Assembly: GCA_024137785.1 (NCBI GenBank) | Contig: JAHRHZ010000267.1 | Coordinates: forward strand, 19,055,664-19,119,663 | Reading direction: 5' to 3' | From: Ginglymostoma cirratum | Taxonomy: Eukaryota | Length of the DNA: 64,000 nucleotides | In this document: positions 2,932-56,394 of the stretch, one piece after another | Layout of the letters: each line of letters starts with the position of its first letter | Position numbering within the stretch: position 1 is the stretch's first letter | Position numbers and translations under genes: made by a program | The notes under the pieces: model-generated | Told to the model about the DNA's origin: nothing | What the model saw: the letters and a program-made list of their open reading frames with translations, nothing else | Database searches by the model: none

Positions 2932-3894
2932 TGAATTGAATTGTCTTAGCTTTATGCTCACATGTACTCAAATGAGTACAGTGAAAAGTTTACAGTTGCT
3001 GCTTTACAGTGCCATCTTAGGTACAAAGGTAACTAAGTATAGATACTTAAGATCAAATTCTTAGGAAACAAAATAAAATTAGAAATTTAAAGAAATAAAG
3101 AGTCCAGCATTATAGCTTATAGGAATAAATTGGAAAAAAAAGAAATAAAAAGTTCAGACTATCAGTCTTTCCAACCCAGTCCATGCTGGCACCTAGCCTC
3201 AAGAAAGATCTTCACCATTGCACTACCACCTGCGCTGGACTCACCAACAAAGAAGTTGCCCACTTTAGGCGCCACCTGTTTTCCACTGGGCCCATTTTGC
3301 TGATGCCGCTAAACCCACACTACCCTATAACCGAGAGTCCCTGGCTCTGCTGCCAGGCCAGGTGGCTGCCCAGCCACAAGTTGCACTTTGGCTGCAGATA
3401 TCACTCTTCCATTGCCGCCATCTTGAAGATTCCGCTGCCACTGACACTGTCGTCCCTGATCACTGGAAGAGCATTCCTGCCACTGTCACTGACACTGAAT
3501 GCTGGGAGAATGACCTCACTGCCGCTGTCACTGACCCTGAATGCTGGGAGAATGACCTCACTGCTGCTGTCACTGGTCCCGAATGCTGGGAAAATGATCT
3601 CACTGCCGCTGTCAATGGCCCTGAATGCCGGGAGAATGACCTCACTTCCGCTGACACTGTCTCCAATTGTCGGGAGAAGCCACATCTGCCACTCCACATG
3701 CGACCCCCTCCTGCTGCTGGGCCGGTGCTATTGACCAACCCACCACTGAAAAGAAGAATAAAAGACAAAAGAAAGGGGAAAAAAAGTGAAAGAAAAGAGT
3801 GGAAGCAAAAGTAAAACAAAGAGGAAAGCAGATTGGACCGGATGGTCTCTAGGCAAGAGCCTATACATAGTTCTGTTACTCCGCTGCCATCTTG
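2932..3894 (-). mobile_element. Non-autonomous retroelement with a Rex1-type 3' tail and an internal 42-bp minisatellite
   Basis: On the minus strand it starts caagatggcagcgg and ends ttttcactgtactcatttgagtacatgtgagcataaa...(aattc)n, similar to the Rex1 tail at 35305-35350. It is nested inside a PLE. Confidence 0.6.
3435..3680. repeat. 42-bp tandem repeat, about 5-6 units
   Basis: Unit ctgccgctgtcactgaccctgaatgctgggagaatgacctca starts at 3477, 3519, 3561 and 3603, with diverged flanking units. It explains the repetitive ORFs on both strands. Confidence 0.9.
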
Positions 3895-5547
3895 CACCAA
3901 ACATTTATCCAAGCAGGTTGACTCTGATTGGTCAAGACATTGCCCTGAAGTAAGAACTAGAAAATGGTTTTGCCAGTTTAAACAGGCACAATATGTTACA
4001 TCTTCTTTCAGTCTGCAAATAAAAAGGTCTTGTGTATTAATCCATGTAACTGCCAGTATCCACAAGTATACTATGCTGTGACCCCGACTGAAAATCTTAA
4101 ATTGGTTGTCAGCATAATTCTTAGTAAGATTATTTTGTAATTATTATTTAATCATGTAATTTTATGTAATGTTGGACATTGTGTTTAGACTTGTACAAAC
4201 ACAGTCCTGGATGGGGGAAGGTGGAAGCCTGGGCGGTTGGGGAGGTGGGGGTGGGGTTGTGGAGGGTGGTCAGTAACTTGCCTGTTGCAAATATCATAAG
4301 GAACATGTTGCATAACACATTCCAACAGTTTTTGAGATGTTTTGTTGATATACCTAGTATCACACTGACACTGAAATTTACATATCATGTTACTCATTTG
4401 TCTGACAGGTAACTTGGTAGTTAACTGTCAGTCATTAACTAACTGCTGCATTCTCCATAGCAACATTTCTGTTAATCCAAGTCCACCTGCTAACCAATAC
4501 GCATGCTCTGCTCATGCTTTATAAAAATATTGTTCCCCTTACATCGGTATTCTTACGAATTGTCCTGATGAATAAAATAAAAAAAGTCTCAACAGGATTG
4601 TCATTCTTCAGTAATTCTTATAATGCTATTAAAAATCATTTACTGTTGAATGGATAATCCCCAACAATTTTTTTCTGGTATGATAAGCAGATGTTTAATG
4701 AGTAAGCAACATGAATTTCTATATTAGACAGCAAATCTCTGGACTAATTATCAGAAGAGCAAAGTTTCTGAAGAAACCAGACTCAGACAACAGCCTCCTG
4801 ATTTCCATGTTTGATTCTTTGTGTGGACAACAGAAATTAGTGCATGGTTTATTCCTTAAGAAAGATGAGCACTTATGACTTCAACAGTAATTTTACTGCT
4901 GGAGCCAGGCTCATGTCAATGAAAATTCGATGTTCATTTATTTCTGAACAATAAGCAAAACTCTGAAATGCCTCTGTTATTACACTTGCGCTATTTAGTT
5001 CATTTATATTTATGATGTCAAATAAAACAATTGAAAGATCTGGAACAATAGAAAGCTTCTGAGGTATAAAGCAACTGAATTTCCAAATGTTTTTGCTGCA
5101 GCTCATACCTTGAAAAATTAGTTGACTCTTTGACTTGATAATAGGTCCCCCAGCCAGAAGGTTAAGTACATGTTATGTAAACAAATAAAAAAGTCATCCG
5201 GCAGTTAACAAATTTGCAAACACATGGTATTCATTTTGTAGACAGTTCCATTACCATGGCGATTACTGTACAAATTACCCCTTGTGCATTTGCTACATCC
5301 TTTGAGGAGCTCAAAGAACCCAGTAAATCTTGTTGCAAAGGTGATGGTGATGTGGACAAGTTAGGTTTTACTACAAATACTTATACCTCAGCATATATTC
5401 TCTTGTTGCCTCTCAAATATTCTAAAGACACTTTGATTATTTTATTATGGATAGAAAAAATTCCCCAGGTTTTCTTACTCTGTGAGACAAAGGGCAGCAT
5501 TTCAATCTTAGTTTTATTAAAACACTCACAAGTTAAAGAAAACAATT

Positions 5548-6535
5548 TGATATAAAGTGGAGGTTGCACTCGTCCCCCGAGAAGTAAAATGGAATCACCT
5601 CAAGAAGAGTTCCTCGCCCTATAATGTGTAAAAGGAGTGTGAAAAGTAATGGAACCTGCTTTTCACCAACTCCTAGTGGTGAAACAAAATAAATTCCTGA
5701 AACTCACTTTAAAATCAACAAGTTACAATTTATTTATCTAACTGCAACAGTGAACAAATTAACGGAACTATTAACAAACTGAACAAACCCCTTCCAACTA
5801 CTAACTGTTTCTGAATGAAACAAAATTCTAACAGTATGCTGTTCCATTAAAAACAAGTCCCACTAGTATACAGTAAAAAAAAAATCTAGTCTCTCGAAAT
5901 TACAGCCAGGTTATGTGTCTTCTGGAATGGTCTGTGCCTTCTCCATCAATTCTGCTGCCAGGATTACCTTCTCCTTCAATTTTCTGTCAGGAATTTAACT
6001 AGTTACGCCATGGATGACATTATTATTTAGATGGTGCTTTCTTTACGACATAGAGGAGCAATTCTCTTTTGAGAACTGAGGGCTGTTAGGTCTGGCATAT
6101 GGCATTTAGCTCTGGGGCTTTATCCAACTGCCCTCTTCCTCTTATAACCTTGATGACATTTCAATGTTTCTTACAATAGAGTTGGTCCTATGTTGTCAAA
6201 ACCATCAGATTTAAATTTGATAGGTTTTTGATATTTAAGGGCCTTGTTCATATTGATTGGCTAAATTGAAAAACTTGTTGTCTTGTTAAAATCTGCTGGC
6301 TTGGCCTGTTAATTGTACGGCCTTTCGATACACATGTTTCAATTTGGGTGCTTTCCGTGTTCTTGCAAACTTTCAAGCTGCTGCTCACAGACATTCATTT
6401 TAAATCCCTAAGCATAGAAAAAGCACATCATCTTTTAAAGGGACCAGACAATGCTTCCCCACCTAGCATTTAACAGATGCCAAATTCTAACTTCCGGCCT
6501 CCCAATCCAGAAGCATTCTCCCCAGATTTGCAACA
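5548..6535 (-). repeat. 3' LTR of the Gmr1-like element
   Basis: Runs tgatataaagtgg...ttgcaaca, collinear with 10840-11816; minus-strand termini are TG...CA. Confidence 0.9.
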
Positions 6536-6547
6536 CCTCTCCCTTAA
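6536..6547 (-). promoter_or_regulatory. Polypurine tract
   Basis: Minus-strand aagggagagg directly precedes the TGTTGCAA start of the 3' LTR. Confidence 0.8.
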
Positions 6548-6729
6548 GAATAAAATCAAACATCATTGTGAAAAGATAGCATCATTTCTTCTCAACGTTT
6601 TCTTTTTAAAACCATAATTCCATTATCTCATTAATCCAGAGGTACACATTTTATACTAATCCTATTTATATAATATTGAACACTTCTGTTTCTATGTTGT
6701 ATAAGCATTTTTCTTTTAAACTCACTATA

Positions 6730-7990
6730 AAGCATCTACAATAATATTTTCATGACCTGCAACATGTACAATCTGTAAATTAAATGCTTGTAACTTCAGA
6801 CTCCAACAAAATAATCTGGTGTTCTTGTCAGTAAATTTTTCCGCAAATGTCAAAGGATTGTGTTTGGTAATTCTTTTTCAATGGTTGAATACTTTTGCCA
6901 GTGGATATTGAGTTTTTTTTCTGAAAAATTACCAATTGGCCTTTCAATTCCACGACCATCCTCCTGTAATGACACAGCTCTAATACCGATATCACTTGCG
7001 TCGATGGTGATTTTGAAGGTTTCAATAAATTTGGTGCGGCTAAAACTGGTGTGGTGAGTAACACTGCTTTTAAGTTGTCAAATGCCTCCTGGTATTGTTC
7101 TGTCCCCCGAAATTTTGTGTTCTTTTTTAACAAATCCGTCATCAGTGCCATGACACTGTTTGCTACAGATTTCCTGTAGAATCCACTCAATTCTGAAACT
7201 CATAGCAGTTCCTTCTTCGATGATGGTCTTGGAAATTCCTCAATGGCCTTCGCCTTCATGTTCGTCACTGTCATCCGTCCATATCCAACGCTGTGCCCTA
7301 ATAATGTCACTTACACTTGTGCAAATTCTCTCTTTGCCAAGTTTATGACCAACTTTGTCTTTGGTAGTCTCTCAAAGAGCTCTACCAAATGTTACATCTG
7401 ATCTTTCCATGAATGGCTAAAGATCACTAAGTCTTCTATGTAGATGGCACAATTAGTCAATCCTGCAACAATTCTGTTCATAAGCATTTGAAAAGTGGCT
7501 GGTCCATTTTTCATTCCAAAAGATGTTGCTTTAAATTGATATAGCACTTTTGGGGTTCCAAAAGTAGAAACTTCTTTTGCTCTTTCCGGCAAAGATACTT
7601 GCCAGTAACCACAAAGTAAGTTCAAATTTGTGATATAAGTGGCTTGTCCTACTTTTCCCACGCTGTCCTCCAGCCTTGGAATTGGGTATGACTCAGATTT
7701 GGTCACAACATTGACTTTCCAATAATCCACACAGAATCGTTGAGTACCATCAGATTTGGGAATCAACATGGTAGCTGAACTCCACTCACTTTGACTCAGC
7801 TCTATTCTGTCTTCTTGGAGCACCGCTTCCACTTCCTTCTGAACCTGCTCTGCTTTCAGAGGATTAAGCCTGTAAGGGTATTGTTTTATTGCAACAGCAT
7901 TCCCTATGTCAACCTCATGTACTAGGGCATGATATCTCCCCATTCTACTTCTACATAGGTCCTCATAGCACTGCAACAAGTATTTCACTT
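6730..7990 (-). pseudogene. Gypsy pol reverse transcriptase and RNase H, frameshifted
   Basis: ORF 7392-7988 contains KQYPYRLNP...QRFCVDYWKVN...YPIPRLED...GYWQV...FGMKNGPATFQ...IYIEDLVIFS. ORF 6828-7190 contains GFYRK...AFDNLKAVLLTTPVLAAP. Confidence 0.9.
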
Positions 7991-8149
7991 CAGTTCTCTG
8001 TTTCTAGGAGAGATAACTCACTACCCTATCCCATTCCTCAAGGACTTCCTCATTATTCAATTTATTCTGAGGCAATTCAAAATTCAAATCATCTGGATTT
8101 GATTCCTCACTCTGAGTGGCAGTAACTAATACCTGCTTCTTCCATTCCC

Positions 8150-9459
8150 TTTCCCTGTCATAGTAAGATTTCAGCATGTTCACATGACGTGCTCGATCTT
8201 TTTTTTCCTATCTGGCATCTTTACCAGATAATTCTCCTGACTTAACTTCTTCTCAATCTGATAGGAACCAATAAACCTTGCTTTGAAGTGATCTCCTACC
8301 ATTGGTAACAACAATAATACTTTATCCCCACGGGCGAATGTAAGAATTTTAGATTTCTTATCTGCTTCTTGTTTCATTAGGTGCTGTGCCACCCTCAAAT
8401 GTTGCCCAGCTAATTCGCTTACACTGCTTAATCTTTTGATCACCTCAGATACATAATCCAACTATGAGATCTCTGACTTTGGACCTATCAACTTTCCCTT
8501 AATTCATTTTAAAGGCCATGTTACTTTATGCCTGGATATCAACTCAAATGGAGTAAACTGACTCAACTCATTTGGAGCATTTCTAACAGCAAATAATATA
8601 AATGGGGTACCTTTATCCTAATAATTTGAGTAATCCTGGCAATGACCTTTCAGCATGGTCTTTAGGGTCTCAAGCCACCTTTCCAATGCTCACTGGGATT
8701 CAGGATGGTGCAGTCTTGATTTAAAGTGTTTGATGCCTAAACTATCCTGACTTCCTTAAATAATTTGGGAGTAAAATTGGAGCCTTGGTCTCATTGAATC
8801 TCCCTGGGTCATCCATAATGTGTAAAGAAAGCAAGCAACTCCTCCACAACCTTTTTTGCCTTGACATTCTGTAATGGAATTGGCTCCAGAAACCTGGTTG
8901 ACACATCCATTATGATTAGCAAGTATTGGTTCCCACTTCTGCTTTTAGGGAGGGGACCGGTATGTTCAATTATAACATGTGTAAAAGCTTCTTCAAATGT
9001 GGGAATTGGCATCAAAGGCACTGGTTTTATCTCTGCTTGTGGCTTTCCTACCATCTGACAAGTATGAAAGGTACTGCAAAATTCAACCACATCTTTATAT
9101 AATCCAGGCTATTGAAAATGTTTCTGTATCTTAGCCTGAGTCTTCCTCACTCCTAGATGACGTCTTTCAGGTAATTCATGTGCTACCTGCAATACTTCCT
9201 GTCTGTATTCTACCAGCAACACAATCTGGTGAACTTTTGCCCATTTCTCATCTGCACTAACCTGCCAAGGGCTCCAGTTCTGCCTTAAGATTTTATCCTT
9301 AAGGTAGTAACATTCTGAAATACATTCTGATTCATTTTCTGAGTAGGCTGTATGAGATAAATCCTTTATCATCTCATCTTTTTGTTGTAGCTTCATGAGT
9401 CTTTTAGAACTAAACACCTCTGCCTGATTGTCTACCTGCTCGGGTTTCTCGTTTACCAT
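8150..9459 (-). pseudogene. Gypsy pol integrase (zinc-binding region, catalytic core, GPY/F-like motif), upstream of RT
   Basis: Motifs VAHELP..HLGVRKTQAKI, FCSTFHTCQMVGKP, GPLPKSRSGNQYLLIIMDVSTRFLEPIPL and ARFIGSYQIEKKLSQENYLV. Confidence 0.9.
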
Positions 9460-9460
9460 A

Positions 9461-9973
9461 GGTCAGGCTGTCTCCTCTCCCCCTATCTTCTCCTCTATCC
9501 ATCTTCTATCCGCCTCCCCCTCTTTCCCCATTTATTTCAGAACCCCCTTCCCCTCCCCCATTTCTGAAGAAGGGTCTCGGCCTGAAATGTCAGCCTCTCT
9601 ACTTTGAGTGCCTACTAATTGGCACCAGAAGCGTACAGACAATGGTTCAGAAATGTAAGAAAGGAACCAAGTAAGACTTATATCAAGTTTGAAAAAATTA
9701 AACAGAGCAACTTCGATAGATGGGTAAGAGCAATAAAGATAGAAAAGAAAAATGAGAAGTTGGTCTGCTGGAGGAGTTTAAAAGCTTGCTATCCGCCTCC
9801 CCCTCTCTCCCTATTTATTTCAGAACCCCCTTCCCCTCCCCCGTTTCTGAAGAAGGGTCTAGACCCGAAACGTCAGCCTTCCTGCTTCTCTGATGCTGCT
9901 TGGCCTGCTATGTTCATCTAGCTCTACACCTTGTTATCTCAGATTCTCCAGCATCTGCAGTTCCTACTACCTC
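9461..9973 (+). mobile_element. Penelope-derived insertion: two tandem pLTR pieces with hammerhead cores flanking captured gag DNA
   Basis: 91-bp direct repeats at 9506-9596 and 9789-9879. Hammerhead cores at 9564-9591 and 9847-9874. PLE terminus agattctccagcatctgcagttcc ends near 9973. Confidence 0.8.
9603..9790 (+). pseudogene. Inverted gag segment encoding a SCAN-like capsid region
   Basis: Reads LSAY*LAPEAYRQWFRNVRKEPSKTYIKFEKIKQSNFDRWVRA...(frameshift)LLEEFKS, the direct continuation of the minus-strand gag that breaks at VKQAILSA (9975). Confidence 0.8.
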
Positions 9974-9974
9974 A

Positions 9975-10658
9975 GGCACTCAAAATAGCCTGTTTTACTT
10001 CTTCATCTTCTCCATACACCTCCTCTGACAGCACTGCCAACACTTCACTAGCCCTGCCTGCCAACTTGTTCTGAATTAACATAACCCACACACTCCCTGT
10101 CCAGTTCATCTGTTTAGCCAATCTCTCAAAAGAGATGAAAATGGCTTTTACATTCTGTTCGTTAAATTTTGGTAACGTTTAGACAGATTTCTATATATCC
10201 CTACCAGGTCTTTGGCTACAATGGGTTTTCTCATCATCATCATCCTCCTCGCCAAGCCTACCTTCTACCTTCACCTCCACCCTTTGCTGTCTAATTGCCC
10301 ACTTCTGAAGTTCAAACTCTCTCTTTTTCCCTTTCCTCTGTTGTTAACCTTAATTCAAACTATTTCAATTCTGTTTCTTTACTTTTTGACTCCAACCTTT
10401 TAATTGCACTTTTTAACTACAATTGTCTCATTTGCAATTTTTTTTTTTACTCCACTACACTTGACTGTTTCTCTGATATACCTAAATGTTTGACTAGCTC
10501 CGTTACAATTTCAGCTTTCTTATTATCTGTAGTTAAATCCAATTTTAGCCTACTTGCTAATTCTAAAGTGTCACCTTTTCCTGTCTTTATAAACTTTCTT
10601 GGCAAATTTGGGAAGCATTTTCAACCCCCAGAGCCTTGTTAGCAATGTTAAAAGCCAT
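9975..10658 (-). pseudogene. Gmr1-like gag N-terminal part
   Basis: ATG at 10658. Translation includes LPKFNEQNVKAIFISFERLAKQMNWTGSVWVMLIQNKLAGRASEV...EEVKQAILSA, with stops and frameshifts. Confidence 0.8.
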
Positions 10659-10814
10659 TTCCTCACTATTGATTAAACCAACAACAAACAACCGTAATTA
10701 AACAGATTTTTCCACTTCTCACTTAAGTTTCATTTAAAGATTTAGGACACTAGTCCCCAAGTCTGTTAAATTTGCTGGGACGTTCTGCACCCTAAATCTG
10801 TTCAAGTCAGTCCA

Positions 10815-10836
10815 ATTCCTGGATGATGACCTCCCA
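10815..10836 (-). promoter_or_regulatory. Degenerate primer-binding site (tRNA-Pro-like)
   Basis: Minus-strand tgggaggtcatcatccaggaat begins 3 nt after the 5' LTR and resembles tgggggctcgtccgggat. Confidence 0.55.
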
Positions 10837-10839
10837 CTC

Positions 10840-11816
10840 TGTTATAAAGTGGATGTTAACCCATGCTCTGAGAACTAAAAACAAAACACCAAAAGAGGAG
10901 CATCTCACCCTATAATCTATAAAAGGAATGTGAAAAGTGGTGAAACCTGCCTTTCAGCAACTTCTAGTGGTGAAATAAAATAGATCCCAGTCACTCACTT
11001 TAAAATCAACAAGTAACAATTTATTATCTAACTTTAACAGTGAACTAATTAACCAAATTATTAACAAACCAAATAAACCCCTTCTAACTATTATCTATTC
11101 CCGAATAAAACAAGATTCTAATGGTATGCTGTTCCAATAAATAAAAGTCCCACATATATAAAATGAAGAAAGGAATCTAGTCTCTCGAAATTACAGTCAG
11201 TTTTGGTGTCTCCTGGAATGCTCTGTGCTTTCTCCATCGATTCTGCTGTCAGGATTATCATCTCCGTCAATTTTCTGTCAGGAATATTAACTAGCTATGC
11301 CTTGGGTACCATTACTATTTAGATGATGCTTTGTCTATGACACAGAGGAGCAATTCTCTTTTGAGAGCCGAGAGCTGTTAGCTCTGGCGGATAACAGTTA
11401 GGACTGTGGCTTTGTCCAATAGCTCCCTTTCTTTTATACCCTTGAGACCATATCAATATTTCTTACAATATGATTGCTCCTATGTTGTCAAAGCCATCAT
11501 ATTTAAGTTTGATAGGCTTTTGGTGTCTAAGAGCATGATTCAAATTGATTGGCTAAATTTGGAAATGTATTGTCTTGGTAAAAACTACTGGCTTGGCCTG
11601 CTAACTGTATAGCCTTTCGATATCAATATTTAAATTCAGGTGCTGTCTGTATACTTGCAAATTTTAAGCTGCTGCTCACAGACATCCATTTTAAATCCCT
11701 AAGCATAGAAACAGCACATCATCTTTTAAAGGGTCCATGAAACGTCTTCCCCCCTAGCATTTTACATATAACTTCCTGCCTCCCAAGCCACAAGCACTCT
11801 ATGCAACTTTGCAACA
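10840..11816 (-). repeat. 5' LTR of the Gmr1-like element
   Basis: Runs tgttataaagtgg...ttgcaaca with TGTT/AACA inverted termini; homologous to 5548-6535. Confidence 0.9.
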
Positions 11817-13716
11817 AATACTTAAACAAATTACCTTTTCCCAAACTGGGCTGACTGCCTGAAAGATGCATATGCTACCCTCTCTAGCAAACCTGATTGG
11901 GCTGCTTGATCCAATTCATTGAGCTCTGTGGGCGGAGCACTCAGGGTCTTCTTGGTACAAAAGTGGGTCTCACATGGAATTGTCTTTGCTGGCTGCATTG
12001 CTGCCAGGTGTCCCCTCTCATTCACCCATTCTGGAATGTTTTCTGACTTCAGCTAATGGGGTCACAGGGAAAATGTCACCGTGCAGAGGTTAGGCCAGGT
12101 CATCCTAGGTTGACCTATGCCCTTTCCAATATATGATTACTCCATAATGTGAGAGGGTCTGGCCAAAACTGCACAATGCAGAAACATAATGTCTCTCCCC
12201 GTGGTTCTGACTGGGCCATAATGACTCTCCCATTGTTAATGTTAAAATTCTTCTGTTCAATATGCAATACAGATACAGGATTGTCCTTGTTTGCTTTTGA
12301 CCTGTGGTAACCTTAATCTATTTGCATTCCAACAGGCCTTCTTGCAGAAACTGTTTGGCCAACTTTATGTTGGCCCTAGTTGCCTAAGCCATTGACCACA
12401 CCCTACAATATGACACTTCCAAAGTATTTTCTCTAAAATCAGATTAAAATAATTCACAGTTGTTGGTAGGATTTTGGCATCTCAAAGACATAAATAACCT
12501 TTTATAATATAAACCATGTAAAACTGAAATAGTTTGGCTTTACATACTAACGTTGACAATTTGTTAGCATAACTTGACCATCAAAAAACAATTCAAGTGC
12601 TTTGAAAATAACATGGATGGATATTGTTATCTTCTTACCAGATTCCTTATGCCACTTCTCAAACTTTAGGAAGAATCTAATGTTTGCTGCCGAGTCCCCA
12701 GCATGTCCTGGAAAATCAGTGGGAAACCCCATGCAATTGCTGTATGCTGGTCAGGTATTTAAATAGTTAGCACTTGACCTTCCTTCAGATTTAGGACAAC
12801 AGCAGGATGGTAGTCCTGCCACCAAAAGTTGTTGATTGGAGTTGAGCAGCAGTGACGGCTGCCTTTAATGGTGCAAGGTCTGCCACAGGGATCACTGCTA
12901 GGTGCCTGGACTCAGGTTAGTGAGGGCAGACTGGGTCTCATGAAGAGGTGGTCCCTGAGAAATCAAAGGACTGTGAAGAGGAGTGGATTTCAGCTGCTGT
13001 GCTCACGCTCCTGATGTCAGGTCCCTTGAGCAAGCACATATTGCCTGTCAAAGAGGAATCACAAAATTTAGACTGCTGGCAAATCCAACAGGGCTTGGGT
13101 GACCTTCAGGAGGTGTGGATAAGCTACCCAACTTCCATTTACTTTCTTGATCCACCATTAAATTCTGATGAACTCAGGGATAATTGGTTGACATCCTGTT
13201 ATGAGCAGACATGTTTTGTGAATGGGAACTTACCAGCTCTGAATTCATTGTGGAAATGGCCTCTCCCACTGTTAGGTGAGCCCAGTTGACATGTTTCCTA
13301 TCGAATTGATGAACATTAAACTCCATGCATTGACTTCCATGAAGCATGCAATGACTTCTTCCTGGTGTATGTTTCATGCTGTATTAGTTACTGGCCAACA
13401 TCATCAACTGATGTTAGTTATTTGTTAAACTTTTGAGATAGCTCAGAAATGGGTTAACATATATTTGGTGGCATAGCATAAACTTAATTTTATCCTGACC
13501 TGTGTAGTAGCAATTACGCCTGTAAATCTTGGCTGAGTTTCTCTTCCCTAACTCAGAACTGCATTGTTCACTTTTTTGGGAGGATTGTGGACCAAAAAGG
13601 AAATGATGCTGCTTTAAACCAAGGAAACCAGAAAAGAAGAAGTTTTCAGTTTTAAAAACAAGTTACTGTTGCCTCATTTGAACGTTGAGGGAAAATCCTA
13701 AACAAATTGACACTAT

Positions 13717-13719
<3 letters not shown>

Positions 13720-13750
<31 letters not shown>
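13720..13750. repeat. (TG)15 microsatellite
   Basis: Read directly from the sequence. Confidence 0.97.
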
Positions 13751-13751
<1 letters not shown>

Positions 13752-14869
13752 CAGGACAATTCTGCCCAGCCTTTTGACTGACTTTTTAATCAACAACAAT
13801 TGTTAACAGTTCAGGAGACCTCAGGTAATGAGCATTGGGTTGGTTCCTGTATGGGTGGTTACAGCCTTGGGTATAGTCAACTTGGCAGAAACATCCATAA
13901 CTTGAAGAGAAAGCATCTTCCTTATCTCTCTCCCCACCTTCTGTGTGAAAAAGTAAAATAAAATCCCTGGTGGCTATCGATTCTTCCTCACCTTTCTTTC
14001 TGAGCTGTTCTTTCTGCACATCTCCTTTTAAAAGAAAATGAGGAAGATATCACCTTCAGAGGTGAGAGGAAAGTGCAAATTCTCAACCAGTGAATGAAAG
14101 TCTGAGAATCTGCATATCCACAACCTCGCACCATCGTTAAAGAATTGGAAGGAACTAAATAGGAATCAAAAGGAGCTGAAAGAAAACATCACATCAGTAT
14201 TTGTGATATGCACTGGCGCCAGGATTGTGCTTCTCCAGTTTTTTGCTTCCTCACAATTCATAATTTTTTGACTTACTGCTATGCATCCGTTTTGATGTGC
14301 ACAGGAAATTTAAGAAACAGGTAAAGGTTAAGTTATAGAATTATGGATGAGCAATTCAACCTTTTTTTTTGCTTTAGTGTAAAAACTGGTTGATTACTTT
14401 AAGCAGGTATTTTCTTGTTCATGGTGTATGTATTCTCATAGCCTGAGTTAGACAGTTAGGTAGGGTTGGGCAATTTGATGGTTTGATCAAATTTTCATAT
14501 TTGTAATGACTCCAGGAATATAGAGGCTGGAATTCCAATGCACAACTTAATGATTTGTGACAGAACAGTAGGACTAACTATAGTGCCCACTATTTCATTT
14601 GGGATCAACTAACTTAGCATAGACTGAGCGTTGAAGCTGAGATCCTCCTGGGTTGCAAGGTGTGATTCCTCACTGGAAAACCTCCAGAGGTTGTTCATGC
14701 ACATCATTGGGTCTATTTAAAACAGAGTTAATTACTCAGGGCCCCAGATGTGGCAGGAAAATGTAGTTGAGACAGAAGGAAGATCAAATCCTGATTACCC
14801 ACAATGAAAGAGCAGTCTTGAAGGGTTGTACAGTTTCTGTTGCTATTTCTTATGTTCTCAAAAGCGTAC

Positions 14870-15165
14870 TGATTATGTGCCTTAATATATTGGAGACACT
14901 GCAGAAGTGACTTAAATGAATGGTTCTAGAATGAGAAGTTGCAGTTATGAACAGAGATTGAAGCACTTCGACCTATTTTCCTTGGACAGAAGGCGGTCGA
15001 GAGGAGAATTGACAATGATTTTCAAAATCATGAGCAGACTGGACAGAGTAGATAGGGAGAAACTGTTCCTGCTTATAAAAGGTAAAAAAAAGCAAGGGGT
15101 CACAGATTTAAAGTGGTGTACAAAAAAGACAAGGGTGATGTGAGAACAAAAGTATTTTTATCCAG
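14870..15165 (+). mobile_element. CR1 LINE ORF2 C-terminal fragment
   Basis: Translates as SYEQRLKHFDLFSLDRRRSRGELTMIFKIMSRLDRVDREKLF. Confidence 0.85.
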
Positions 15166-15685
15166 CAGGACATCAGGCTTTCATCTTCAACTTGCAAGCT
15201 GGTCAGGGATCTTTCTGTGTCCCCATTTACCCAAGAAGAAGAATTCCAGCATCTATTTTTGGCTTTATCTGCAAAAAAAGGAATGTGCAGAGATACAGGG
15301 AGAAGTCAGGAGAATGGTTTGAGGTGAAATAGACGTTTGCAGTGCTAGTGCTGACATGGTAAGTAAGTGGCCCTCTTCTGCATTGCAACAGTTCTGTGAT
15401 TTTGTGTAGGCTCTAAGGAGGAAATAGCAAATTGCAGATGTCAGAATACAGAGATGGGAAGACAACCACACAATCAAGAGGGAGTTGTGGCTCGATAGTG
15501 ATGGAACTTGATGAAAGTGTTAAGGCATCAGAGGGGCTTTATTCAATGCCCTTAAATTAGGAAACTGTTGGGCTCTATGATGTTACCTCAAAGTTGTTTC
15601 TCCTCTCATTGTTCACTTTTACCTTACCAGGTTGGACAGTGTAATTGTGATCTGTGACCATGGTAGTGGAGTCCTTTATTGGTTG

Positions 15686-15982
15686 TCATAGAATCTCTAC
15701 AGTGCATAAAGAGGCCATTCAGCCCAACAAATCTGAACCAACAGTCCAAAGAGCATTCCACCCAGACCTAGCCCCCAACTTTACCCCTGAAACCCTGCAT
15801 TTAGCATAGGAAATCTACCTAGCCTGCACATCTTTGGATTTTGGAAGGGAACAGGAGCTACCCAGAGGAAACTCACACGGACAAGGGGAGAACATAAAAA
15901 CTCCAGGGAGATTGTCTCCTGAGGTTAAGATCAAACCCAGGCCCCTGGCGTTGTGAGGCAGCTGTGCTAACCACTGAGCCAC
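15686..15982 (-). mobile_element. HE1-type V-SINE
   Basis: Minus-strand tRNA-like head ggctcagtggttagcacagctgcctcaca, V-domain (ccaaagatgtgcaggctaggtagatt) and CR1-type tail. Confidence 0.85.
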
Positions 15983-16019
15983 TCATCATTCAGAGGAGAT
16001 TATTGGAGGAATGTGATCT

Positions 16020-16725
16020 TATTGTAGAGGGTACAGAGGAGATTTACTACAATGTTGCCTGGGTTGGAGGGTTTTGCTCACAAAGAGAGATTGGATAGAC
16101 TGAAGTTGTTTCCTCGGAGCAGAGGAGACTGAGGGAGGGCATGATTGTGATGTATCAAGTTATAAGGGGCATGAATAGGGTAGACTGGAAGGACCTTTAC
16201 CCCTTGGTGGAGGGATCAATGATTAGGGGCATAGATGTAAGGTAAAAGGCAGGAGGTTGAGAGGGGAAGTGAGGAAATTATTTCCACCCAGATAGTGGTG
16301 AGAATCTGCCTGTAAAGGTGATGTAGTCAGAAACCCTCATAACATTGAAGGCGTACTTAGATGTGCACTTGTGATGCCAAAGCATACAAGCCTATGGGCC
16401 AAGTACTAGAAAATGGGATTAGAATAGTTAGGCACTTGCTTTGGCCTGACACAGACTCAATGGTCTAAAAGACTTTTCTCTACGCTGTCAACCTGTATGA
16501 CTGTATGACATGTGAGTAGTTAGGGTGTGGAATGCACTGCCTGGCAATGTGGCGCAGGCAGGTTCAATTGTGGCATTCAAAAGCACATTCGATGATTATT
16601 TGGATAGAAATGGTGTGCAGGGTTACGGGGAAAAGACATGAGACTAGCACTAGGTGATAGAACTGATGCAGACACAATGGACCGATTAGTCTCTTTCTGC
16701 ATTGCAGCAATTCTAGGATTCCATG
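16020..16725 (+). mobile_element. Two adjacent CR1 LINE 3' fragments
   Basis: gagggtacagaggagatttactacaatgttgcc...ctgtatgactgtatgac, followed by a second tail from ~16510. Confidence 0.8.
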
Positions 16726-17129
16726 ATACGTACACTAACAAGGTCAAAATTTGCATTTATTTTTTAAATGCAAAGGAATTTCTTGAATTTTTTTTCAACT
16801 AATTTTATTTTCATTTGAGACAGACATGATGGAAGCTGATACTAGTAAGTCACAGACTAATAAAGTTTACCAACAACTTCACTAAAACAGGTCTCCTTGG
16901 GTCACATACTAATGAGTTCACACCAACGTGGAATCCAATTACAAAATGTGTTTTCTTCAACTTATTACCACATGATGCCAAAGGATGAGCTGAAGGGGAG
17001 TTCTCCATCTGGCTTCACAAGAGAAATTGAAACTCTTTGCTTTTTAATTCATGAAATATGCAAGGTGGGCAAAAAAGAAAATAAAATGGGGGAAGATGCT
17101 TTTATGGATTAAATGAAGCACCCTGGATT

Positions 17130-17283
17130 CGAGATAAAAGGTACTGCAGATGCTGGAGAATCCGAGATAACAAGGTGTGGGGCTGGATGAACACAGCAGG
17201 CCAAGCAGCATCATAGGAGCAGGAAAGCTGATGAAGGGTCTAGGCCTGAAACGTCAAGCTTTCCTGCTCCTATGATGTTCGTT
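17130..17283. mobile_element. Fold-back PLE mini-element with a hammerhead core and 11-bp TSD
   Basis: TSD caccctggatt at 17119-17129 and 17284-17294. Inverted arms 17209-17229 and 17257-17277 surround CTGATGAAGGGTCTAGGCCTGAAACGTC. Confidence 0.85.
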
Positions 17284-17549
17284 CACCCTGGATTAGAAAT
17301 TAGTTTAATTCAAACCATCCAAAAGCAATTGACCTTAAAATCAGAACTCCATCTTGCTGTAAGCACTTTCTTGTATATAATCAAAAACAAAAAACGGGGA
17401 CAGAAGCAGTATTGTGAAATTGTAAATAAATATGGTCTGTTTATTGTAAAAAAAACAGAAAATATGGGAACAATAAGCAGGTCTTCCCAGTTCTAAAGAA
17501 AGAAGACTGTTTATTGTTCTCGAGGTCCTTTTGTATTGACATAATGTAA

Positions 17550-28795: not shown

Positions 28796-29670
28796 TGTTA
28801 TGAAATTGGATAGAGTGTTCATGAATTGGAAGGCAGGAAGTTAGAAGTTGTTTATGAGGTTGCTGTGGTCCCTTTAAGAGCTTGTGCTTTGTCTGTGCTT
28901 GGAAGTTTATAAATACAGAGTGTCCAAATGGAAACAATTTGTATAGAATAGCCAAGCAGCATTTTGTCCAAGACAACAAGTTTGAATTCAGCTAATTAAC
29001 TTAAACGAAGCACTAGATACAGAAAGCCAATTGAATTTAAAACTGGTGGTGTTGAAACCAATCATATTATAAGAACTTGATTATGTCATTATGGGTATAT
29101 ATTGGAAAATTGGGGAGAGCCAACTACCATCTGAAAGAGAGTGTGGCTCCACCATCTGTCAGAGTTAGCACCATTCAGCTCCCAGAGAAAGCCCATCTAA
29201 TTAATCAAAGGTATCACTGCATTTTAGCTCAAAGTCCTCATTGAAAAAATTATAGAGATAAAACATCCCTGACACCAGAATCAGTAGAAGAAAGGTGTTT
29301 GTGAAAAGAGCAGAGACAACAGGATATTCCAGAAGGCAGTCTGTGTGAACTTGGAGAGATTAAGTTATAATTTATTGTTTCTTATTAATTTGGTTTATAT
29401 TAGTGGAACTTGTCTTTATTTAAACAGCATTCCTGTAGAAATTAGACCAGCTAGGGATTAGTTAATTGTATCGGGGGGAATTGTCAGTTTGTTAGTAATT
29501 TTGTTAATTTGTTCATTGTTGGGTTAAATGAATAAATTGTTTCTTGTTACTTATAAAGTGGAAATCGGGGATTTTCTTTCTTTTAACCTCTTGTAATAGA
29601 TTATGAGGGGAACAATGAGCTTATTTGGGTGTTTCAGGGGTAATGATTAGATGGGAACCTTGTTGTTACA
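28796..29670 (+). mobile_element. Isolated Gypsy-type LTR followed by a PBS-like remnant
   Basis: TGTTA...TTACA termini. aataaattgtttcttgttacttataaagtg resembles the Gmr1-like LTR (aataaattgtaacttgttgattttaaagtg). Followed by gattggggct. Confidence 0.6.
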
Positions 29671-30772: not shown

Positions 30773-31914
30773 ACCACCCCACCCCCCCCGACAAAAAAGA
30801 ATTTTTTAGCCCAATCTACCTATTTAGAGAAGCTGAGTTAACAACAGTTGAGGCAGTGCCTTTATTTTCATGCAAGCAACTCTTTCAATATGAAATTGAA
30901 GTCAAGAACGTTCTTTTGATAAATGAAAAGACCAACTTCTATTCACTTTCAGAGTAACAGCCAAATTAACTTCAAAATTGTTTTTACTGGTATGGTGGGA
31001 GGGTGTATTGTCAATCTGCAGCATGTTTTAACTTTTTGCAGGTGTCATTGTTTGCAATTGTACAGCTGCCTTTTCATTTCCTCCATTAATTGGCTCAAAT
31101 CTTCCAATCTCCAGTCCTAACATGTGCAGCAGGACCATATAGAAATCCAAACATGTCGACAAATGTGGGCATACTGGAAAGTTCACATTTCCATTGGGCA
31201 ATTCCCAGTTGTGCGGGACTCATGACAGAAGTCTCTGGACTGTGTTTGTGTGCTTTATCTGGATATCCAACCAATGTGATGGACAGATTGAAACCTGGGC
31301 TAACAGCTGGGAATTCTGTTAACAACCAAAACATCCTTCCCCTTTACCCACTCAGCCCCCAACTACTCATCTATAACTTTCATCTTGGCCAAATTCAACT
31401 AGCCCCAACCCAAAGAGATGTGATAGACCTGACTTCACCCAACCCATCCACTTCCTGACCCCTGACCTGACTAATCCTGACTAGACTCGACTACTCCATA
31501 ATCCAACTCAACTATCCTCTTCACTGGACTTGACTCCCCTCCACCCCACCGACCCAAGCTGACTACCCACTCACCACCCTACTGTTTGCCCACTTTGCCC
31601 TCCTCATGAACCAACCTACCTCACCCACCTCACCATTCATTGACCACTTCATTCACTACCTCTCCACTTAAACAACCTACTGATTTATCCACTTACCCAC
31701 TGACCCACTCAAGCATCTATCCACTTACCTGTCCTCTCAATTATTCAATTAGTCCTGCTCATTCGTCGAAGGATTCAAATATTCGCCAGAATTCGATGGC
31801 CAGTGACTTAAAGAAAAAGCTCAGTCCTCTACATCTAATCCCAATGGATTTTTCCTGTAGATAATGTGCACTGCATTTGTTCTTCAGCTGGGAACAAAAT
31901 ATTTTTGAAGAAAT

Positions 31915-32050
31915 GCACAATGTTGAGCTGGAGAAACAAAGCAGGCCAGGCAGCATCAGAAGAGTAGCAAAGCTAACATTTCAGCTTGGGTCCCTGTCTC
32001 TTTCTGAAGAATCTCTGACTCCACCATCGGCAGTTCTTACCATCTCCTGG
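31915..32050. mobile_element. Degenerate PLE fold-back mini-element
   Basis: gagctggagaaacaaagcaggccaggcagcatc...ctgaagaa...ccatcggcagttc resembles 17130-17283 and 9880-9973. Confidence 0.55.
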
Positions 32051-32734
32051 AAGAAATGCACAGTAGTGTTTCTGTTGACCAAAAAAATTCAGGTCATTAT
32101 ATGCTGTTGAAATCTTTTGTGTATTGTTGGCATACAGCTTCAGTGGATGACAAATCCGTGCATGTAGATTTATTGGAGCCAGCCAGCCACAACCTCAGTA
32201 TATACTTGATGGGCAGTGGACTTGCTGTGGAGTTGTGGCCAGCATTTATCTACTAGGATCACCATTCAAGCACTATTCTAGGCCTAATATGGGAGTCATT
32301 CCTGTGTGATTGTTTTTCTTTTTCTCACGTCTTTACAACAACTTGTTTCATTTTTGTTTGTCCCTTACTTTTTCGGATATGCTTTAATGCCTTGTTGCTT
32401 TATAAACATGAATTTCATATGCTAATTATTTTATATTTGACATCAAGCTTTTCAAAAAAAAACTAATGAACAGTCAGTCCTTATCTCCTCTCTAACAGAA
32501 GTCGATATTCCTGATTCATGACTGTACATTGTTGTTCGCTCCTCCTATACTTGTGTTTTACGCAGCCTAAAACAGGGACCTGCTCATCTTCCAATTGTCA
32601 GTTTTGACAAAGAATTTCATTTGATAATTTAGCCTGTTTTATCTCTTTGTAATTGTTGACCGGCTGGCTGAGTGTCGCTGGGACCTTCAGATATCCCTTT
32701 TCTACAGTCGCCCTCCCCTTTCAATTCAGAATAC

Positions 32735-37074: not shown

Positions 37075-39375
37075 GAGTGGAATCTTATCCGGCTCTGAGG
37101 AACACAGGCCATGGCTAGATTCATGGCAGAACTGAATGAGAGTTTCAGTGAGGCCTATATCATTGGGAGCATCTTGTTCCATCTTTAATGCTTTTGCAGA
37201 GCGGTGAAGTGAGATTCTTGCTAGGCAGCAGCAAGTTGCCGATTGACAGGGATTAATACTCGTTAACAACCTCTTAAGAGCCCCAACTCACCTCATTGAT
37301 AATCAGCTTCCCATCTGGCTGAGATAGACGTTGACAACTCTCGACATGGAGGTCAGAGTGGATAGTTGGTGAATTCAGCTTACAACTTGAGTCAAAGGAT
37401 CTCCATGTTGGGCGCCAGGCAGCAACATCTGAAGGTATCTTCCATGGGCACTGACCACACGCACCCGACAACTATGGCCAATGGCATGCAATATGTGCCA
37501 GCATCTAAGAAGCCTCATGGCACATTTCTGATTCCCTTAAGGTTGCTTCACTCCTTCAATGTTTTGGAGCGATTTGCTCCCTCAGCCAGAGATACTGGGC
37601 TCATATTATGCCTTTGATTTGATGTTTTTATTGTCATGTGTATCTTGTTGCGAAATACAGTGAGAAGTGTTGTGTTGCGAAGTGTCATTACTCTACAGCA
37701 CCAGCTTAAAACACAGAAAAATAAACCAAAACATAGGTAGAAAAAAAAAAGAATTTAAAAAAAAAACATTCAATATTACAATCCTTCCTGTTAAATGCTC
37801 TGCCATGGGCCATAGGCCTGGTGGCCAGGCATGAGTCCTCTTTGCTGTACTATTGCTTCTGGAATGAAAGTGGCCACTCTTCAGCACTATCTCACCTCCA
37901 CCGATACCGTCACCACTATGAGCCCGCGCCGTTGCAGACACCACCGCTGCTGCTGGGTACCCCACCAGCCCAAAATCGACATCGCTGCTGCCACATGTCT
38001 GCTTCCGGCCTGTCTCATTGATTCAGCCGCTGCTATTGCTGCCCCGTGTTGTACCGCGTTGGAACATGCCTCCACCATCACCTCCAGGAATCTGCGCTGG
38101 ACGCAGACACCGCTGGGAGCCCAAACTCACCTCCGCCTCAGCAGCCGTGTGTCGGTGCTAAGACCGCCTCAACGATGCAGAGGCTGCTGGATACACAAAC
38201 CTACCTCCGATGCTGCAGCCATAAGTCTGTGTTTCTGCGCCCACTTGAGTCTCTGTTGCTGGGCGTACGCGCTGCCGCCAATGTTGTCATCGTGACCGAA
38301 GTTTTCAGCAAGAGGTAAGTAAAATAAAACATAGAAAAAAAAAGAAAAGAAACGAAAAGGAAAAAACAGATGAAGTGGACAAGCCCTGGGCTCAGAAGCC
38401 CAACTCCACCACCATCTTACTGGAAGGAATCTGAAAGTGTACCTGCTTTCACTGTTAAGTGTAGACCCAAAGCCAGTAAGCATGTCATGGCTGTCAGCAG
38501 CGCTCAGTCTAGGCAATGGAGATAGCCTTCAGTCAGGGAGTCCTGACACAATAAGTCAAAGGGAGCCTCCTAAATCAATCCTTGATCTTGGACATGGCCA
38601 GTCAACTGTGCAAGGCAGTCAGAGTCCCGGTACTTTCCACATAAAGGCGTGAAAAACTGAATGTTAGGCAGCCCCACCAGCTGTCTGACCTATTGTGGGC
38701 TGTTTTCCTTGTGGAACGAGTGAGAGGCAGGTATGAAAGGGTGTGAAAGCTATTACTGTTGGTACAGATGACGAGGTACCCTGAGCATTGAATTAGGCAG
38801 CGAAGATGCAGGGTAAGTAGTGTCAGTAGGGTTTGGGTGGGTGACGGTGAGTGAGAGAAGATGTTACAGGTGTTAGTGAGTGTGATAAAGCATCACCATT
38901 ATTGGGGAGGCAGGGAAGATTGGTGCATTAGCAGAGTTACAGTAAATATAAAGAATCACCAGCGTTTATGCTGGTGGAGTGGATGAGGCTGCAATGAACT
39001 TGGATAGCATCCTTGAATGAGGCTGGAATGGCCTAGTTTTCATGGTCTCCACTGCTGGCCCTGGTGGACGGGAAAATCCTGCATCTGCATCATTCCATCC
39101 AGCAGGCTATCCGGGCCCCTGCCACAAATTGGGGCATTCCCATGGTTTGGGAAAATATTAGGGACCAGGCAGGGCATCTGTGGACTGATAGTGCCTCTCC
39201 AGGTGCATAATGGGCCTTTAAAGCTGCTCTGTGCTGAGTTGTTCTGGTGATGGCGTGCAGTAAATCGGGTTAGAATCAGATGTGAGGCATACCAGCGGGA
39301 TATGGTGTGTAGTCAATGTGTCATTTTGTTAAGACACGGCAAGAAATTATACTGGGCCTTGTGGCAAGATTCCCT
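37075..39375. mobile_element. Harbinger relic with convergent transposase (+, ~37400-37610) and Myb/SANT gene (-, ~38430-39145) pieces
   Basis: ggcactgaccacacgcac and cttcactccttcaatgtt resemble the GAIDCTH and GFHSLNV motifs. The minus strand is homologous to 58930-59540. Possible ggaatctt inverted termini. Confidence 0.5.
37613..38426 (-). mobile_element. Non-autonomous retroelement with a Rex1-type tail and CpG-rich body
   Basis: On the minus strand it starts cttccagtaagatggtggtgg and ends ttctcactgtatttcg..gatacacatgacaataaaaacatcaaatcaaa. Confidence 0.6.
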
Positions 39376-53811: not shown

Positions 53812-53950
53812 AACTTCCTGAAGAAGGGTCACTGGACCTGAAATGTTAACTCTGTTTTGTCTTCACAGATACTGCCGGACCTGCTGAGTTTCTCCAGCAA
53901 TTTCTATTTTTGTTTCTCCTTTCTGGCATCTGCATTTTTTTAGTTCTTTT
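53812..53950 (+). mobile_element. PLE terminal fragment with hammerhead core (53818-53847)
   Basis: ctgaagaagggtcactggacctgaaatgttaactctg...cacagatactgcc, the same family as 1427-1520. Confidence 0.75.
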
Positions 53951-54683
53951 GCCCCCATAAGTTGTTATATCTAGTTTAGCAGCTAAAAAACATGGTTGGA
54001 GAGACGGTGGATCAGATGTAGAATTCTGTCACTTTCCTTCAAACAGCTCTTTATATTTACTTTCCCTTCATTTTTGCCCATCTCTTGTGAGCATGCTGTT
54101 TCTTCAGCCCTCGTCAAATGTTGATAATGATTTGAGACTCATTTGAAACTGTCAAAAGACTTTTGGAACTTTTAATATCCTTTTGTTATTTTCCGCCATT
54201 TCTTTACAATGCAGTTCTCTGTGGTCTTCATGACTGTGCTCTCAGCACCCTTGCAGCTGCTCAGTCAGAGATACTAATGACGCAGCAGCAGAATATTGGA
54301 TTCAAATTGCAAGGATTTTAGTCACATCTAGCAAATCTGACCATGTAATGTTCTGAATATAGTCTATTACTTTTATCATCATTATCATTTGTTTATTCAT
54401 GTAAAATTCAACTTCCCTCATGGCCAAGGGCCAAATCAAGGGCTTAAAATTAATCATGCCAAGTAAAATATTAAAATGTAAATAATGACAAATGGAACAT
54501 TCTGATTTTAAGCTGGAGCTTTGCATTATCAGAGACAAGAATTTAATTCATTAGAGTTTGTTTACTTTGCAGATGAGGTATGGCATTTGTCATTTTACTT
54601 CTTAATTCATTTAGTTATTTTGAAGCCATAGCTGGTGGTCATTGAGAAAACTGTCAGCAGGAAGCAAGTAATGAAGTTTGGAG

Positions 54684-54884
54684 ATAACAAGCATGGGGCT
54701 GGATGAACACAGCAGGTCAAGCAGCATCATAGGAGCAGGAAAACTTGACGTTTCGGGCCTAAACCCACGAAACATCAAGTTTTCCTGCTCCTATGATGCT
54801 GCTTGACCTGCTGTGTTCATCCAGCCCCATGCTTGTTATCTCGGATTCTCCAGCATCTGCAGTACCTTTTATCTCTGATACTAT
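54684..54884. mobile_element. Palindromic PLE mini-element with 15-bp TSD
   Basis: TSD taatgaagtttggag at 54669-54683 and 54885-54899. Inverted arms 54681-54755 and 54768-54842. Confidence 0.9.
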
Positions 54885-56394
54885 TAATGAAGTTTGGAGC
54901 TTGGCAGTGATCTTGTGAAAGAACAACGATGTTAATTGTGCCTGTTCTTGAATGCCTCCAGACCACAATCATGTAAGACATCTGAGTAACTATGATAATC
55001 AATACCAAGATGATTTTACATATCTTTTTGTGAACACTTTCAATGGCTTTATGTTTCTGCCTTGGGATTCTAGTTAACTACACACATGCCACATAATTCA
55101 ATAAAGGTGACCAAAAGATGTGAACAGGATTACAAGGTCATTAGTTGAGATGAAATGGTATTTCAGCTTCAGAAGCCTGTGCATTTGGCTGTTAGCTCAT
55201 TTGACAGTAGAATCGACAGATACATCCCATAAATATGTACAAGAGTTGCACAATGTTGAAATGTTTTATTGTGACACCATTCATAGGTTGATTTGGAGTT
55301 GTCAATTTATAAGAATGAGCCAGATGAAAACAGTAATGCCTAAATCTACACCAAACATTGAAAATCTAGATGAGGAAGCCTGAGTAAATTTATCCAGAAC
55401 ACCTCTGGTTAATACCTCTTCTACAGTGAATTAGCTGAAATGAGCAAGGTCACGTGTAGGGCTGTTGAGAATAGATTAAGTTTCCTGGGTTAGAAACAGG
55501 GAAATTTGCTAAAGTTTATGTTTTGAATTGCCATCCAGTAAGCCTTGTTGGAAGTGAAGATGTGCAATCATCAGCTGGAGATAGGCTTAGATATAGGTAT
55601 GATGCTGCCTACAATTAATTGTCACTCTTAAGATTCATATGTACCTCAATACCAGTTGTGTGAAGTAACAGAGGGAAAGACTACAATAAAGAAAAGGAGG
55701 CAAAGGGAGACAAAGTTTGAAGGAAACGAAGGAGGGTAATTGGTAAGAAAAAAAACACATTCATAAAAATTCACAGATATTTAGTTCTAAATAGTAAAAA
55801 TAACATTTTTATTTTTGTGTTTTCTTGCGGCTTTATAAGAATATACATACATTAAATGATATTGCGATAGAGAAAGGTATACATTCATTTATATTTTAAA
55901 AAGCTATTGTAAGATTAAAGTTGCAGATATAGATATTTTATGAGGTCATTGTATCTTTAGGTGTATAATCACACATACATTTTATGAGAGTGTACATTCT
56001 CATACATAGTGTATGAAGGCAGAGCGTACTCTGTCTGCATGATGGCTGCAACAGAAACATATTGTTAGATTAGGCTACTTCTAGTTAAAGAATGCTGATT
56101 GAGAGACCAAAAGAAACAATCCAGTAACACACAATATAGAAATTGTATCACAAAAAAGAGGTGAGCACAATAAAAGGGCTTAAATATGCTTGAACTTAAT
56201 CCCATCAAAAATAATGCTGATCATATTCAAACACAGCTGCTAGCTCTCTCTCTTGGTCAGGACCAACAAATATGTTTGTTTTTTACAATTCAGCTATTAC
56301 CCTACGATTAAAAACGTAGTCAACTAGATCAAAATGAAGGAGCATATTATAGGTTTTTTTTTGCTTATTACCTATTAATGCAACGAAAATACAA

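Follow-up and report, generated by a model that had tools for sequence, protein, structure and literature searches.

Inverted, truncated copies carrying tails are typical of Penelope-like elements (PLEs), and their cause was called undefined in 2021 (PMC8557442); the purified protein of a PLE has been described to cleave and extend both strands of its target, beginning at two sites by which the tail is defined (PMC11167929). The hammerhead motifs of these elements are of a minimal kind, marked by a conserved core, an extra base between positions 9 and 10.1, a G10.1-C11.1 pair and a palindromic 15.2-16.2 segment; in the minimal motifs of Schistosoma helix I measures 4-5 bp and helix II 7-8 bp, and a variant with a 2-bp helix I is described in Drosophila virilis (PMC4209133). 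Minimal PLE hammerheads are reported to cleave poorly even as dimers (PMC4209133), and for an anole PLE hammerhead neither cleavage without protein nor RNA reads ending at its site are reported (PMC11167929). Animal retrozymes, the second group of elements relevant here, are tandem units of 150-450 bp that carry canonical type I hammerheads and are expressed as circles (PMC7229834), active ones being defined in a preprint as two or more units in a row whose motifs are complete (10.64898/2026.07.22.740005).

For insertion-linked rearrangements, accounts of L1 serve here for comparison. An inversion of genomic DNA on the reciprocal end of the insertion, accompanied by an overlap resembling a target-site duplication (TSD) and by an adjacent deletion, is explained there by resection, self-annealing of the overhang, cleavage of the loop and ligation; in one case the insertion lies inside the inverted part, and end-joining is favoured over template switching (10.1101/2024.12.14.628481). 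The ends of twin-primed L1 cDNA can also join other breaks, and an internal duplication between the two cDNAs, with a median of 22 bp, is given for 17% of inverted insertions (10.1101/2024.08.27.596794). Finally, the SCAN domain is said in a review to resemble the gag of Gmr1-like retrotransposons (PMC4592553).

The window analysed here, that is the whole stretch of 64,000 nt from Ginglymostoma cirratum (contig JAHRHZ010000267.1, assembly GCA_024137785.1), contains no N. The locus of interest is placed inside an LTR retrotransposon, whose recognisable parts are the following:

5548-6535, minus strand: 3' LTR of the host element (80.7% identity to 10840-11816 over 991 columns)
6728-8204, minus strand: host pol, reverse transcriptase and RNase H, with stops and frameshifts (Pfam; tblastn of relatives)
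8180-9465, minus strand: host pol, integrase region upstream of the reverse transcriptase (Integrase_H2C2, Integrase_p58_C; tblastn)
9975-10640, minus strand: 5' part of host gag, with stops and one frameshift (reading of the open frame; tblastn)
10840-11816, minus strand: 5' LTR of the host element (80.7% identity to 5548-6535)

A purine tract adjoins the 3' LTR, the 4-bp flanks of the element agree at three of four bases, and pol is matched by the Pfam families RVT_1 (E 1.2e-15) and RT_RNaseH_2 (E 0.0078). On the minus strand the order is gag, integrase, reverse transcriptase, RNase H, the upstream end of the integrase region being the deletion junction (9460-9467). An integrase preceding the reverse transcriptase is the arrangement that we take to be that of Gmr1-like Ty3/Gypsy elements, and the family name is assumed on the same ground. 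Judged by its direct LTRs, its gene order and its SCAN-like gag, the host is a decayed Gmr1-type LTR retrotransposon; the same class had been proposed in an earlier note on this DNA, and the LTRs with their short flanking duplication, the integrase upstream of the RT-RNase H region and the SCAN-like gag all agree with it. Diverged matches (71-73%) to the host LTR are present on the opposite strand at 28951-29583, which may be a related family's solo LTR. Elsewhere in the window, a short tandem array with a period of 42 bases (3435-3678) lies inside overlapping open frames of 181-226 codons, two of which gave no Pfam match; an open frame of 241 codons at 34267-34992 matches RVT_1 and ALKBH8_N, a domain pairing that we take to indicate the end of a LINE-type reverse transcriptase; and the open frame of 159 codons at 37816-38295 has no Pfam match.

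The gag of the host is interrupted, and part of it is found on the other strand. Three features describe the inversion:

9599-9613, plus strand: target-site duplication, inverted copy (11 nt perfect, 14 of 15 identical)
9614-9788, plus strand: gag piece in inverted orientation, covering roughly positions 1-54 of a SCAN-like capsid domain of 90 positions (Pfam; mapping of relatives)
9974-9988, minus strand: target-site duplication, first copy, at the end of the uninverted gag (inverted-repeat comparison; end of the gag open frame)

Relatives of the host were collected with its reverse transcriptase protein as query (120 of 238 matches listed), and the 48 listed ones of at least 1300 aa were compared with the locus. 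Of these full-length relatives 47 match the plus strand within 9560-9830, none of the 48 has a plus-strand match elsewhere in the host element, and 44 match both sides of the break; in all 41 that are mappable (three are not), the last minus-strand gag codon and the plus-strand codon at 9610 correspond to the same residue. Since the piece is in line with gag in intact relatives, the inversion is real in the sequence, and by this protein-level alignment 9599-9788 is host gag on the wrong strand. It had been stated before that the minus-strand gag stops and is continued on the plus strand, with about 190 bp of target DNA inverted, and a comparison of its orientation with intact copies had been proposed as a check; the comparison upholds the statement (47 of 48 relatives match the plus strand), and the end is placed at 9975, the resumption at 9604 and the inverted DNA at 9599-9788.

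The junction is duplicated, as had also been noticed, but its length needed revision: rather than a 10-mer, the inverted repeat 9599-9613 / 9974-9988 is identical at 14 of 15 positions and perfect over 11 nt (9603-9613 / 9974-9984), and an inverted match of at least 11 nt was obtained in only 10 of 20,000 random pairs from the window. A median of 322 aa (198-545 in 47 relatives), or about 1 kb, has been lost from the stretch that separated the flipped piece from pol; of the 47 relatives, 42 have a protease motif and 45 a CCHC zinc knuckle in the part corresponding to this gap, and neither motif occurs in any frame of 5548-11816, so that the rest of gag and the protease are indeed missing, as claimed.

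Pfam recognises SCAN in the gag of all four relatives scanned, starting five residues past the break, and in the same four the flipped piece maps onto the SCAN region (about 54 of 90 positions). At the locus itself, the search with the SCAN model suggested in the earlier note did return a match on 9604-9771 (E 0.02), but its 15.1 bits lie under the cut-off of 27. The inverted piece has a stop at 9616 and changes frame near 9762-9770, and none of the four ATGs of the 283-nt interval described below is in frame with it. What had been called a SCAN-encoding segment thus retains a real SCAN match, but only over about 54 of 90 positions, with a stop and with no in-frame ATG; as read from its frames, it is a partial match and not an open gene. 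A protein search with the 68-aa gag piece gave 21 candidates, none at E 0.001, and there is no second copy of the piece within the 64-kb window. The locus shares with the Gmr1-like elements of PMC4592553 the integrase placed before the reverse transcriptase and the SCAN domain in the gag of the relatives; in contrast to what is described there, the SCAN region is here split, inverted, about 60% long and untranslatable, with no sign of co-option.

The inverted gag piece is bracketed by two arms of a repeat, both in the same orientation:

9468-9604, plus strand: arm A of the Penelope-type repeat, which stops at an internal site (repeat comparison; loose ends before 9468)
9564-9591, plus strand: minimal hammerhead core 1, CpG-decayed (core motif)
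9789-9973, plus strand: arm B of the Penelope-type repeat, which stops at 9973, the usual 3' end of the family (repeat comparison; loose ends)
9847-9874, plus strand: minimal hammerhead core 2, with its core intact, a helix II of 4 bp and a helix I of 2 bp (core motif; folding)

The arms contain a direct repeat of 99 nt with 90% identity (9506-9604 / 9789-9887, spacing 283), the first 91 nt of which show seven differences; the bases 9599-9604 agree with both the repeat and gag at five of six positions. The first copy had been taken to begin at 9461, and the loose ends in public runs place its start instead at about 9468. At the left junction (9459-9467), a word of six bases matches in reverse orientation the continuation of the repeat in other copies, which may be chance or a small fold-back. 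The two hammerhead cores were found 283 nt apart at the positions first reported, 9564-9591 and 9847-9874, and the CpG decay ascribed to the first is equally evident, three of the four CpGs of arm B being decayed in arm A; in core 1 the decay has hit position 9583, at the base of helix II, and position 9588, in the palindromic helix III. Core 2 carries all the marks of the minimal PLE hammerhead (PMC4209133), in keeping with the type assigned to the cores before, and core 1 has lost G10.1-C11.1 and the palindromic 15.2-16.2 segment to CpG decay. In either pairing helix I consists of two pairs, and helix II of four, so that both fall short of the helix lengths of the Schistosoma minimal motifs (PMC4209133). 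At the gathering score Rfam has no match in the window, as expected for minimal cores, and no PLE reading frame (reverse transcriptase with GIY-YIG) is present among the six open frames of at least 150 aa in the window (five were scanned, the sixth overlapping two of these). The repeat is likely of Penelope type, a label that rests on motifs and structure. Another repeat family, which is related to this one and whose hammerhead-type core is decayed, is represented at 1427-1522 and 53818-53913, the two copies being 85.6% alike over 97 nt.

Three other copies of the repeat were found by blastn within the window:

17119-17294, no strand assigned: head-to-head arms in an 11-bp direct duplication (blastn; repeat comparison)
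31907-32062, no strand assigned: head-to-head arms in a 13-bp direct duplication (blastn; repeat comparison)
54669-54899, no strand assigned: head-to-head arms in a 15-bp direct duplication (ends of the arms 33 nt apart, the tail)

Direct matches of at least 11 nt arose by chance in 18 of 20,000 random pairs. In all three copies both copies of the duplication sit 3' of an arm, at a distance of 0-9 nt, and in all four copies of the window, the present one included, one arm stops at the equivalent of 9973 and the other further in (at the equivalents of about 9895, 9928 and 9940 in the three others). At the rearranged locus, too, each copy of the duplication touches the 3' side of an arm, B at 9973 and A at its internal site. 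On account of these arm ends and of a size of 11-15 nt as in the three other copies, the duplicated junction is best read as the target-site duplication of the repeat family; accordingly the part of the earlier interpretation that tied the event to a PLE insertion is sustained, both duplication copies touching the 3' sides of arms as they do in the three ordinary insertions. With the PLEs having an inverted pLTR and a tail (PMC8557442, PMC11167929) the family shares the inverted 5'-truncated copy and the minimal hammerhead core, and the 30-40-bp tail of those elements has its counterpart in the distance of about 33 nt between the arm ends of the 54.7-kb copy and in the loose ends at 9973 and 9938-9941; the differences are that no reading frame was found in the window and that at the rearranged locus the arms are direct and surround host DNA. 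The head-to-head copies turn round at the hammerhead core or close to it, and two of them form strong hairpins when folded (z of -3.9 and -9.7). For the 17-kb copy, the stretch following the core, at the place of the would-be helix I, is paired with the inverted arm.

Twenty-four public runs are listed, none of them RNA; the best share of the window's words in any of them is 0.37, and they may represent relatives or lack the locus. Four were aligned at 85% likeness, and the multi-copy repeat dominated the lists both of joints and of pieces. The commonest loose end in the four runs lies behind 9973, with a second group at 9938-9941, and other repeat copies extend upstream of 9468. Among the joints listed (15 of 373) there is an opposite-strand joint at the core and no repeat-to-gag joint, and no piece spanning the junctions is among the pieces listed (32 of 259,487). 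In three DNA runs the summed contig depth, a rough measure and not a copy number, was about 4,200-12,100 over 9612-9764, about 4,000-16,900 over host pol and 1-17 million over the arms; the depth of the gag piece, being at the level of host pol, argues only against large amplification.

The arrangement is probably, on our reading, the product of an insertion of the repeat that was primed from both cut ends of the target, one of which was flipped, with about 1 kb of the host lost in repair. The enzyme of the element would cut the two strands 11-15 bases apart, and its RNA would be copied from both cut ends, one end priming arm B from 9973, the usual 3' end, and the other priming arm A at an internal site, aided by the match at five of six bases. 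Ordinarily the two cDNA ends would then join, leaving head-to-head arms; here the second end would have been resected by more than 1.1 kb, its free cDNA end would have been rejoined to pol (junction near 9465), and the loop would have been opened 175 bases from the cut, the end so produced being ligated to arm B (junction 9788/9789). The flipped block would then consist of arm A, a copy of the duplication and 175 bp of gag, which would yield the order gag, duplication, arm B, inverted gag, inverted duplication, arm A, pol. Arms that were inverted would have become direct because the second end was flipped, and the flip would have left, as a side effect, the direct pair of hammerhead cores at a spacing of 283 nt.

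Three features given for the L1 inversions, namely a TSD-like breakpoint overlap, a local inversion and an adjacent deletion, are all present at the locus, and the position of the element within the inverted part has its counterpart in one L1 case (10.1101/2024.12.14.628481). The locus differs from the cases described there in being old and of germline type, in belonging to a Penelope-type element and in having no poly(A), and further in carrying cDNA on both ends, with an overlap of 91-99 nt that results in two direct cores. Among the marks of the L1-type reciprocal-end inversion are microhomology at the fold-back junction and none at the junction where the cDNA was end-joined. L1 twin priming (10.1101/2024.08.27.596794) has in common with the present case the priming of cDNA by both target ends, the internal duplication and the joining of free ends to other breaks; priming from both ends, however, looks like the rule in this family (four of the four copies in the window), whereas it is a minority outcome in L1. 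The seven differences in 91 positions between the arms, against 19% between the LTRs, fit an insertion into an already ageing host. Two observations count against this reading: all three CpG changes between the arms are in arm A, a mild asymmetry to be expected by chance about one time in four, and the overlap of the arms, 91-99 nt, exceeds the median of 22 bp given for L1 internal duplications (10.1101/2024.08.27.596794).

The same final order would result if the process had taken two steps, in which priming from both ends first left a usual head-to-head insertion, with a 38-nt spacer between arms of 91-99 bp, and a later break at the centre of the palindrome led to a repair in which arm A and 190 bp of gag were inverted and about 1 kb was deleted. 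Palindromes are fragile, and the window's copies are ordinarily head-to-head, two of them with strong folded hairpins (z of -3.9 and -9.7); yet this course requires another event at a later time and another break, the three other palindromic copies have stayed unrearranged, and a one-step outcome is documented for L1 (10.1101/2024.12.14.628481), and we consider it unlikely. Taken together, priming from both ends and this two-step variant of it account for the locus with high probability. The earlier note had instead proposed that reverse transcription switched onto the target DNA and back, the cDNA leaving the PLE RNA, copying 190 nt of target DNA backwards, re-entering the RNA further 3' and finally being joined to pol. 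The minus strand can be read as one such continuous synthesis, 9599-9604 fits both templates at five of six bases, and templated insertions and switching variants are known with L1 (10.1101/2024.08.27.596794); nevertheless the switch would have to cross a nick, carrying the new cDNA, exactly between the duplication and the remaining gag, so that a second intact molecule would be needed, its return after one family-sized duplication (11, 13 and 15 bp elsewhere) would be a coincidence, the deletion needs a separate cause, and for the similar L1 case the authors preferred end-joining (10.1101/2024.12.14.628481). Priming from both cut ends is preferred to it because it explains the position of the nick and the duplication-sized return and because the three other copies show the pattern; we regard the switching proposal as the less likely account and as a rather doubtful one in absolute terms.

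That the arrangement is an artefact of assembly in a repeat-rich region might be suspected from the lack of a repeat-gag joint among the joints listed (15 of 373) and from the trouble that tandem and inverted PLE structures cause in short-read assemblies (PMC8557442). Misassembly is nonetheless very improbable, given that the arms differ at seven of 91 sites, three of which are CpG decays, and that the duplication is family-sized with one mismatch, in a window free of N. Two independent insertions followed by recombination were considered and rejected on geometry: the arms would stay inverted and the second duplication would lie on the 5' side of an arm.

The earlier note had further called the 283-nt interval a retrozyme-like unit that could self-cleave into an RNA of about that length. 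In its full form this reading would have the interval, now or in the past, pass through transcription, cleavage by a double hammerhead, circularisation and reinsertion. The two cores have the same orientation, they can be drawn paired as a nested double hammerhead with four helix-III pairs including one wobble, the length of 283 nt and the GC content of 0.43 are compatible with animal retrozymes (PMC7229834), and a preprint derives retrozymes from the pLTRs of PLEs (10.64898/2026.07.22.740005). With the non-LTR retrozymes of these two sources the locus has in common two direct type I hammerhead cores about 300 nt apart and a GC content under 45%; it departs from them in that its cores are minimal and not canonical, one of them being decayed, and in that neither a tandem repeat nor amplification is seen. 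Indeed, the interval is not itself repeated, only 91-99 of its 283 nt belonging to the repeat, so that there is no tandem unit and the whole unit, complete hammerhead included, is not repeated; within the window the gag piece occurs once, and its depth (roughly measured) is at the level of host pol in three DNA runs. In place of the canonical type I hammerhead, with its helix I of 6 bp and its loop contacts, there is a helix I of two pairs and no Rfam match, core 1 is decayed, and minimal PLE hammerheads are in any case described as weak (PMC4209133, PMC11167929). When folded, the double-hammerhead form came out 35.8 kcal/mol higher than the ensemble, compared with 35.2 kcal/mol when core 1 was given the letters of core 2 and with 31.5-43.7 kcal/mol in 20 shuffles of the spacer; since the controls gave like values and no active positive control was included, these energies are not used on activity. 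The retrozyme-like unit is thus scarcely credible, and the interval is probably not a working self-cleaving RNA element.

With priming from both cut ends as the preferred reading, the locus is probably a one-off accident, unique of its kind, and likely inert. Each of its parts is of a known kind, and the combination was not found in the literature searched; in particular, the titles and abstracts covered (most subscription papers and all supplements lying outside them) report no L1-type reciprocal-end inversion caused by a PLE with two direct cores around host DNA. There is a slender chance that the locus is a frozen example of the birth of a retrozyme, the flip having made a direct hammerhead pair around captured host DNA. 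If so, a double hammerhead assisted by protein could, before the CpG decay, have released the new 283-nt unit as RNA, and flips of this sort would be a source of the unrelated spacers found in animal retrozymes, an origin that a survey of genomes could test.

The value of the locus is mechanistic. Together with the three ordinary copies of the window, it provides genomic support for the priming of PLE insertion from both ends, with a stagger of 11-15 nt. Such priming, seen in vitro with purified protein (PMC11167929), would explain the PLE inverted repeats of undefined origin (PMC8557442), and the class of insertion-linked inversions described for L1 would be extended to a PLE.
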